Sequence record: PV540240.1
DNA: 40,473 nucleotides
Origin: Escherichia phage BUCT788
Reading direction: 5' to 3' (one strand)
The notes beneath the pieces are model-generated. The model was not told the origin of the DNA and searched no databases. It worked only from the letters and a program-made list of their open reading frames with translations. Positions 32,951 through 33,041 of the stretch are shown in pieces. Made by a program: the position numbers and the translations under genes. Each line of letters begins with the position of its first letter. Position 1 is the first letter of the stretch.

Positions 32951-32969
32951 CTTAACTATCACTATAGGA
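32951..32969 (+). promoter_or_regulatory. Phage-RNAP promoter (CTTAACTATCACTATAGGA) immediately upstream of the RNA polymerase gene
   Basis: Consensus copy 73 nt upstream of the RNAP start codon, followed by short direct repeats (32987..33040). Confidence 0.65.
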
Positions 32970-33041
32970 CTCAAGGTCTAAGACTCCAAGTGAAAGACCA
33001 AAGAGACTTTAAGTGAAAGACTAATAACAAGGACTTTAAGT

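Follow-up and report, generated by a model that had tools for sequence, protein, structure and literature searches.

Does a T7-like phage leave transcription of its RNA polymerase gene to the host, or does its own polymerase read that gene as well? The question is raised by Escherichia phage BUCT788 (PV540240.1), for which a preliminary description had pointed to a consensus phage promoter and short direct repeats directly upstream of the polymerase gene (gene 1). The window, meaning the whole stretch of 40,473 nucleotides analyzed here, corresponds to the genome of a K1F-like coliphage (Kayfunavirus, Studiervirinae) in circularly permuted form. Numbered 1..40473, it opens in the gene 3.5-type amidase (25..483) and the terminase ends at 29559; by K1F homology the physical genome end lies at ∼29.9 kb, and the early region comes next. 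Over the 1 kb around the element, identity to dozens of phages of Escherichia, Salmonella, Citrobacter, and Enterobacter is 94–96%, and the gene 1 polymerase shares 99.8% identity with that of phage phiYIO1-1 and 62.9% with that of T7.

Table 1. Features of the window around gene 1 and elsewhere that bear on its transcription
Feature	Position	Strand	Evidence
Gene 3.5-type amidase, T7 lysozyme family	25..483	+	Pfam PF01510, E=3.7e-16
Phage promoter after the terminase gene, phiOR-like	29655..29673	+	copy scan and alignment
Upstream early gene, K1F gp0.38 homologue	32684..32944 (ORF open from 32567)	+	phrog_7066 match to residues 42-125 of the ORF; K1F 0.38 annotation
Predicted K1F-type RNAP promoter, -17..+6; ACTTAACTATCACTATA followed from +1 by GGACTC	32950..32972	+	19-mer copy scan, copy alignment, 16-sequence comparison, CR44b annotation
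Gene-1 leader, 75 nt, six degenerate ∼14-nt units	32967..33041	+	repeat, RGAC-spacing, composition and fold analyses; diversity
21-nt imperfect direct repeat, copy 1, AGACTCCAAGTGAAAGACCAA	32981..33001	+	contains AAGTGAAAGAC (32988-32998)
21-nt imperfect direct repeat, copy 2, AGACTTTAAGTGAAAGACTAA	33004..33024	+	contains GACTTTAAGT (33005-33014) and AAGTGAAAGAC (33011-33021)
Gene-1 translation-initiation region: Shine-Dalgarno AAGGA 33029-33033, 8-nt spacer, ATG 33042	33029..33044	+	sequence
Gene 1, single-subunit RNA polymerase, 893 aa	33042..35723	+	Pfam RNA_pol PF00940, E=6.8e-106; RPOL_N PF14700
Phage promoter after gene 1, position equivalent to T7 phi1.1	36030..36048	+	copy scan and alignment
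Intrinsic-terminator-like hairpin after the ligase gene, position equivalent to T7 TE	37682..37709	+	terminator scan

The promoter-like element before gene 1

The 19-nt sequence CTTAACTATCACTATAGGA is present exactly at 32951..32969, where the promoter had been described, and the distance from its end to the polymerase ATG is indeed 73 nt. Scanning the window for copies with at most three mismatches returned 10, all on the + strand, against a shuffle expectation of 0.02. Their alignment defines the family ACTAAACTATCACTATA followed by GGG or GGA, and the element has the properties of a T7-group promoter: it spans ∼23 bp (-17..+6), its CACTATAGG-type core matches the genome's own consensus, and it recurs in multiple copies co-oriented with the genes. 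The gene-1 copy differs from the set only at -14 (T in 3 of the 10 copies); its GGA start is common to five other copies and resembles the copies in the DNA-metabolism region. It is intergenic (stop codon 32944, ATG 33042), the stop codon of the gp0.38 homologue ending 5 nt ahead of it, and its predicted +1, G 32967, would give a leader of 75 nt up to the ATG at 33042.

As in an autogene, this cognate promoter lies upstream of gene 1 on the same strand with no terminator ahead of the gene, and the terminator scan found no terminator-like site on the + strand from 32967 to 37153. The early unit transcribed by the host, to which the gene-1 promoter belongs, ends at the TE-like hairpin that follows the ligase gene (36554..37672, Pfam matches). 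Only one other promoter copy lies 5′ of gene 1 in the permuted map, the phiOR-like one ∼3.3 kb off. A T7 RNAP bearing the K1F specificity loop shows activity on a promoter that has the K1F bases at -12..-7 (PMC3458549).

The absence of a phage promoter before gene 1 in T7, mentioned in the preliminary description, is borne out by the T7 record (V01146), which annotates T7 promoters only at 405, 5848, 5923, and 6409, with gene 1 at 3171; scanning the first 6.6 kb of T7 gave only those four. What precedes gene 1 in the same record is a minor E. coli promoter, C (3113). Like the gene-1 copy, the T7 class II promoters (phi1.1A/B and phi1.3) are near-consensus, lie in or next to the early region, and have non-GGGAGA starts; all of them, however, are downstream of gene 1, so that the polymerase gene is not their target.

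Existing annotations of the site in Kayfunavirus vary. K1F (NC_007456, NC_007636) has homologous sequence at the homologous position, with no promoter feature in the stretches of the records examined. In CR44b (NC_023576) the homologous site is annotated as a "predicted promoter" (1814-1836, ∼70 nt before gene 1), and PE3-1 (NC_024379) carries a promoter feature at 2874-2896, likewise ∼70 nt before gene 1, labeled "host RNAP promoter." This label finds no support in the sequence, which has the phage consensus and no sigma-70-like match, and a consensus scan found no -35/-10 pair with 16-18-nt spacing on the + strand near 32950 of the window, so we discarded a sigma-70 host promoter as an explanation of the site. 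Possibly the label was carried over from T7, where the minor E. coli promoter C offers an analogy.

A further shared sequence, GACTCAAGGT, stands just 3′ of three phage promoters of the window, at 32968 (+2), 11044 (+17), and 36052 (+7). It also adjoins a degenerate promoter-like sequence, CAAGGTCATTACTATAGGTAG, near 26573 (26554-26578), upstream of an ORF at 26610.

Distribution of gene-1 promoters among T7-like phages

K1F shares the promoter and, apart from one base, the leader, and 220 records of the phage collection cover at least 80% of a 301-nt query centered on the element. We then examined 80 IMG/VR loci with relatives of the RNAP for 15-mers within the 400 nt before gene 1 that recur elsewhere in the locus. 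Where the RNAP is at least 79% identical, all 21 testable loci carry their own phage promoter no more than ∼120 nt before the gene-1 ATG, with leaders of 75–87 nt; further promoter copies number 4–7 per locus in 20 of them and 2 in L015, a truncated locus. None of the 58 loci with an RNAP 58–64% identical (T7-like, T3-like, Yepe2/Berlin-like, and K11/KP32-like) has a gene-1 promoter; upstream, the closest copy is over 1.5 kb from the gene, and the next one comes right after gene 1. A second test, based on promoter-core patterns and inspection of the top recurrent 12-mers, concurs with the 15-mer test. The promoter is also found in six more GenBank Kayfunavirus genomes (EcpYZU01, EcL30g, Pisces, SFP21A, CHRF_30030, and PRF-SP2), including the most diverged of the six, EcpYZU01, at 72% identity.

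The sequence of the gene-1 copy changes with the lineage. It reads AACTATCACTATAGG in K1F-type phages, AAACCCTCACT(A/G)TAGG in L016, L042, and EcpYZU01, and AAGGTACACTATAGG in L014, and each of these three types is the lineage's own specificity type, matching that genome's other promoters. Because it has been refitted through at least two specificity switches, the gene-1 promoter does not appear to be a relic, and this tracking of specificity is, among the comparative data, the strongest argument that the predicted promoter is functional. Variation within the K1F type is informative as well. Pairs among 16 distinct sequences differ on average by 0.000 in the promoter and by 0.014 in the leader, compared with 0.126 at third and 0.011 at first plus second codon positions of the RNAP gene and 0.065 in the upstream gene. 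The leader is thus ∼9 times less variable than synonymous sites; this low diversity places both promoter and leader under purifying selection.

One large lineage departs from its own consensus at this site. In L010-L012, L018, L020, and L086-L089 (which include Pisces, SFP21A, CHRF_30030, and EcL30g), the gene-1 promoter, ∼82 nt before the ATG, and only that promoter carries a T>A change at -2 (CACTAAAGG); the other promoters read CACTATAGG. The change counts as one event because these phages form a single lineage. We rejected a specificity switch from TATAGG to TAAAGG, since the lineage's other promoters keep TATAGG and the change is private to the gene-1 copy. It could reflect tuning or weakening of an autogene promoter, which would then not be a simple strong promoter. 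The leader of this L010 type contains CTTTAGTG, a perfect 8-nt complement of CACTAAAG. Early regions also differ within the genus: those of Pisces, SFP21A, and CHRF_30030 (L087-L089) encode a protein kinase of the T7 0.7 type together with a SAM hydrolase of the T3 type, whereas those of K1F and the window lack a kinase and contain an ocr-like gene; the gene-1 promoter is retained in both layouts.

Outside Kayfunavirus, a small survey gave mixed results. The Ghunavirus phages PPPL-1 (L091, 4552) and MR2 (L092, 4021) have a full-consensus promoter 133 and 124 nt before gene 1, respectively, and Piedvirus IME-DE1 (L094, 19648) has a one-mismatch copy 47 nt before it, with promoter sequences and leaders other than those of Kayfunavirus. 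Ghunavirus leaders contain CTTTAAGA, TTAAAGA, and AAGACTAATA motifs reminiscent of the Kayfunavirus leader. No promoter was found within 400 nt of gene 1 in Pektosvirus PcaP1EGY, Vectrevirus 6948, or Kaohsiungvirus AS51. For phiA318, a relative of AS51, autoregulation was suggested by its authors from a promoter, phi-A8, upstream of the kinase and RNAP genes (PMC4099482); unlike the Kayfunavirus promoter, the AS51 site lies ∼1.4 kb upstream of the RNAP gene, before the kinase gene. Vibrio phage AS51 (L095) also has seven copies of a palindromic repeat, CAGTCTCACACTGTGAGAC (2940, 4686, 6288, 6968, 9605, 18048, and 25012), one of them 231 nt upstream of the RNAP gene, possibly a family of processing or terminator hairpins. 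In L039, a T7-like IMG/VR contig, eleven 21-nt units (AGGAACCACTGAGTATCATTG) stand head to tail near the left end (198-428).

The leader and its repeats

We next turned to the 75 nt between the predicted start and gene 1. Both repeat pairs described there are real and have no further copies in the 40.5-kb window, although three of their four starts had been given one base off: AAGTGAAAGAC is found at 32988-32998 (given as 32989) and 33011-33021, and GACTTTAAGT at 33005-33014 (given as 33004) and 33032-33041 (given as 33031). These pairs are parts of a 21-nt imperfect direct repeat whose two copies are 86% identical, and they are the best-kept pieces of a series of degenerate units, RGAC(T)..AAG, that fills the entire leader. 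Six RGAC cores start at 32967, 32981, 32995, 33004, 33018, and 33031, with spacings of 14, 14, 9, 14, and 13 nt; the recurrence of the core, six copies at 13-14 nt with one 9-nt interval, is significant, and similarity between whole units is low. At most 7 of 5,000 dinucleotide shuffles reached six GAC, and none had a spacing so even. Tandem Repeats Finder reported no array in the leader. In composition the leader is 43% A, within the top 0.15% of 75-nt windows.

The true Shine-Dalgarno sequence, spacer, and ATG of gene 1 make up the last unit, which includes the second GACTTTAAGT; units 2 and 4 have GTG where unit 6 has ATG. This suggests that the array may have arisen by duplication of gene 1's own initiation region. 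Two upstream mini-ORFs starting at these GTG codons (32990, 8 codons; 33013, 3 codons) were rejected as functional elements, as they are not conserved and the GTG of the L010 type is in frame with gene 1. We also dismissed the idea that the two ACTTTAAGT copies pair to mask the ribosome site only in phage-initiated RNA, since predicted accessibility is equal in the two transcripts and naturally occurring T-to-C variants weaken the helix. Readings of the units as CsrA (GGA), Hfq (ARN), or primase (GTC) sites or as epsilon enhancers would each fit at best a fraction of the units.

The repeats had been proposed to form an RNase III-type processing site, and they do occupy the same position as T7 R1; as its equivalent they would trim host-initiated early transcripts before gene 1. 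The centroid fold of the read-through RNA even contains a hairpin at 32956-33019, although a long, weak, and irregular one. Folding of the leader and its flanks, which the preliminary description had called for, gave no stable hairpin: folding energies are at the level of shuffled sequences for the leader from +1 (z +1.0; a further leader value was +0.5), for the read-through RNA 32880-33045 (+0.15), and for the 110 nt before the ATG (-0.72). The folding covered five lineages, and other lineages gave z from +0.6 to -1.9 with differing pairings. Predicted folds vary among the window, L010, L085, and L014; the pairing of the window is not retained in the L010-type, EcpYZU01, and L014 leaders, and T-to-C changes within the repeat weaken it without compensation. 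T7-, T3-, and K11-like loci served as positive control: there, the same test over 110 nt recovered a conserved, GC-rich two-stem hairpin (GGTGTATCTT..GGTGYC..GGCACC..ATAGATAAACTTT and a T7 variant) with z of -1 to -4.3, at what we take to be the place of T7 R1, and this hairpin has no counterpart before gene 1 of the window. Since the leader has no stable hairpin while the R1 genera show one under the same test, the repeats are, on these fold predictions, not an R1 equivalent; a trimming site at the repeats is highly improbable, and the slot that R1 fills in T7-, T3-, and K11-like phages is in Kayfunavirus occupied by the predicted phage promoter.

What, then, could the repeats be? The initiation region (-20..+15) has a predicted unpaired probability of 0.61, equal in phage-initiated and host read-through transcripts; other initiation regions of the genome average 0.47 (sd 0.11, n=21). 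The leader may tentatively be seen as a selected, unstructured leader that favors ribosome loading or mRNA stability, an idea in which we have low confidence and which does not account for the even RGAC spacing. Another reading is a binding array of six RGAC(U) units 13-14 nt apart, in leader RNA or DNA, through which a phage or host factor would gate the translation or stability of polymerase mRNA, the promoter still being functional. A natural autogene needs a brake to be tolerable, and such an array would supply it. No other stretch of the genome is as dense in RGAC and GACT as the leader, its even spacing occurred in 0 of 5,000 shuffles, and its low variability relative to synonymous sites fits as well. 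Spacings are kept in diverged leaders (15, 13, 13, 14, and 15 nt in the L010 type; 14, 12, 16, 14, and 15 nt in EcpYZU01), and L014, the most distant relative, has a periodicity at lag 14-15 (z 4.1-4.7, 0 of 1,000 shuffles). These leaders share ancestry, however, so the conservation of the pattern is not independent evidence, and base-by-base periodicity in the window itself is weak (lag 14, z about 2). A 14-nt spacing is also unlike the DNA helical repeat, and no candidate binder emerged; an Rfam scan of 32400-33400 matched no family, with a snoRNA as best match (E=0.68). We regard a binding array as rather unlikely, and a dedicated cis-regulatory array, more than a mere spacer, whose units serve the ribosome as stand-by sites or are recognized by a factor of phage or host origin, as doubtful to the same degree. 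If true, the array would set polymerase yield from phage-initiated transcripts and would be the missing control on a natural autogene.

Other readings concern the promoter itself, which, against a simple autogene, could serve replication priming or the expression of genes 1.1-1.3. The primary origin of T7 consists of the phi1.1A/B promoters and an AT-rich stretch. Here, too, the promoter is followed by above-average A+T (63%, top 2% of 75-nt windows), and a single promoter follows gene 1 (36030) where T7 has the phi1.1A/B pair. Yet 63% is modest against the 73% of the richest 60-nt windows, which lie elsewhere in the genome at several places, although as a test of a T7-type origin this comparison is weak; the composition of the stretch is explained by its being the 5′ UTR and ribosome site of gene 1; and transcripts must cross gene 1, so that polymerase mRNA would be made regardless. 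A promoter mainly for DNA replication or genes 1.1-1.3 and not for polymerase autoregulation is quite unlikely. A chance or relic promoter with repeats left by neutral slippage is harder still to credit, and indeed scarcely plausible. Tandem Repeats Finder sees no array and the repeats could stem from duplication of the ribosome site, but the promoter match is exact where 0.02 are expected, promoter and leader diversity (0 and 0.014) are far from the 0.126 of synonymous sites, and the promoter has been updated through at least two specificity switches.

The control hairpin has features of its own. L033 and T7 differ at 4 of 120 bases in this region, and the shape is conserved in L025-L037 and L043-L055, 40–100 nt ahead of the RNAP start codon. 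The GC-rich upper stem varies, the lower stem (ATCTT/ATAGAT) is invariant, and the hairpin would be well suited to a covariance model.

A probable natural autogene and its place among T7-like phages

Taken with the readings above, the comparisons make it likely that the phage's own RNAP uses the element at 32950-32972 as a functional promoter, by which gene 1 would amplify itself, with a selected leader. No transcript or 5′-end mapping of a Kayfunavirus was found in the literature searched. The positive feedback proposed in the preliminary description gains strong comparative support: the predicted site is invariant in the 16 K1F-type sequences, present in every Kayfunavirus-type locus examined, and refitted to three specificities.

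In the mechanism that we propose, the promoter sits within the host-transcribed early operon, and gene 1 would at first be read by E. coli RNAP starting from early promoters located at the genome end. The first phage RNAP molecules would then also initiate at 32967, the inferred start, and the resulting feedback would amplify the polymerase and genes 1.1-1.3 up to the TE-like terminator. The promoter would also keep gene 1 and genes 1.1-1.3 expressed after the shut-off of the host polymerase. The phage promoter here and the R1 hairpin in T7-, T3-, and K11-like phages may each give gene-1 mRNA a defined 5′ end. By its GGA start, the promoter may resemble the weaker class II promoters of T7.

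When cloned, T7 autogenes are difficult to keep unless they are repressed. Because an unchecked loop should be costly, a brake must be assumed. The T7 lysozyme-type amidase binds the phage RNA polymerase, and by analogy with T7 biology the amidase at 25..483 is a candidate for this role.

Related designs help to place this arrangement. In T7, the slot between genes 0.7 and 1, with R1 and promoter C, holds a stable two-stem hairpin and no T7 promoter, the reverse of what is found in Kayfunavirus. An engineered T7 autogene likewise has the polymerase gene behind its cognate promoter, and its expression rises autocatalytically once triggered (PMC1500874); unlike that artificial construct, the arrangement in the window is natural and lies in a host-transcribed operon, which would act as the trigger, with the loop limited by the length of infection. 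Phage LUZ100 has a phage-specific promoter, phi1, immediately before its RNAP gene, as in Kayfunavirus; its transcription start site was obtained by ONT-cappable-seq, and positive feedback after host read-through was proposed (PMC10134795). In contrast with LUZ100, where the start site is mapped and a MarR-type repressor and a lysogeny module are proposed, the promoter in the window is predicted and the window has no such module.

A gene-1 promoter in Kayfunavirus is already known, being annotated in CR44b and PE3-1, and the concept is known from other T7-like phages. We did not find descriptions of the exchange of the R1 hairpin for a promoter, of the tracking of specificity, or of the constrained periodic leader, which are modest additions and do not overturn current understanding. 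They are of practical interest nonetheless. Anyone engineering therapeutic phages of the K1F type should not treat the intergenic stretch ahead of gene 1 as a neutral place for insertions, and synthetic biology working with orthogonal K1F RNAP and promoter parts could copy a natural, evolutionarily tuned autogene together with its leader. The arrangement is also relevant to models of infection timing in these phages. More broadly, it means that the T7 textbook scheme, in which the polymerase gene is strictly early and host-transcribed, is not general: the wiring of the polymerase gene to its own promoter extends over a coliphage genus of about 220 sequenced genomes and is found, besides, in at least Ghunavirus, Piedvirus, and LUZ100.
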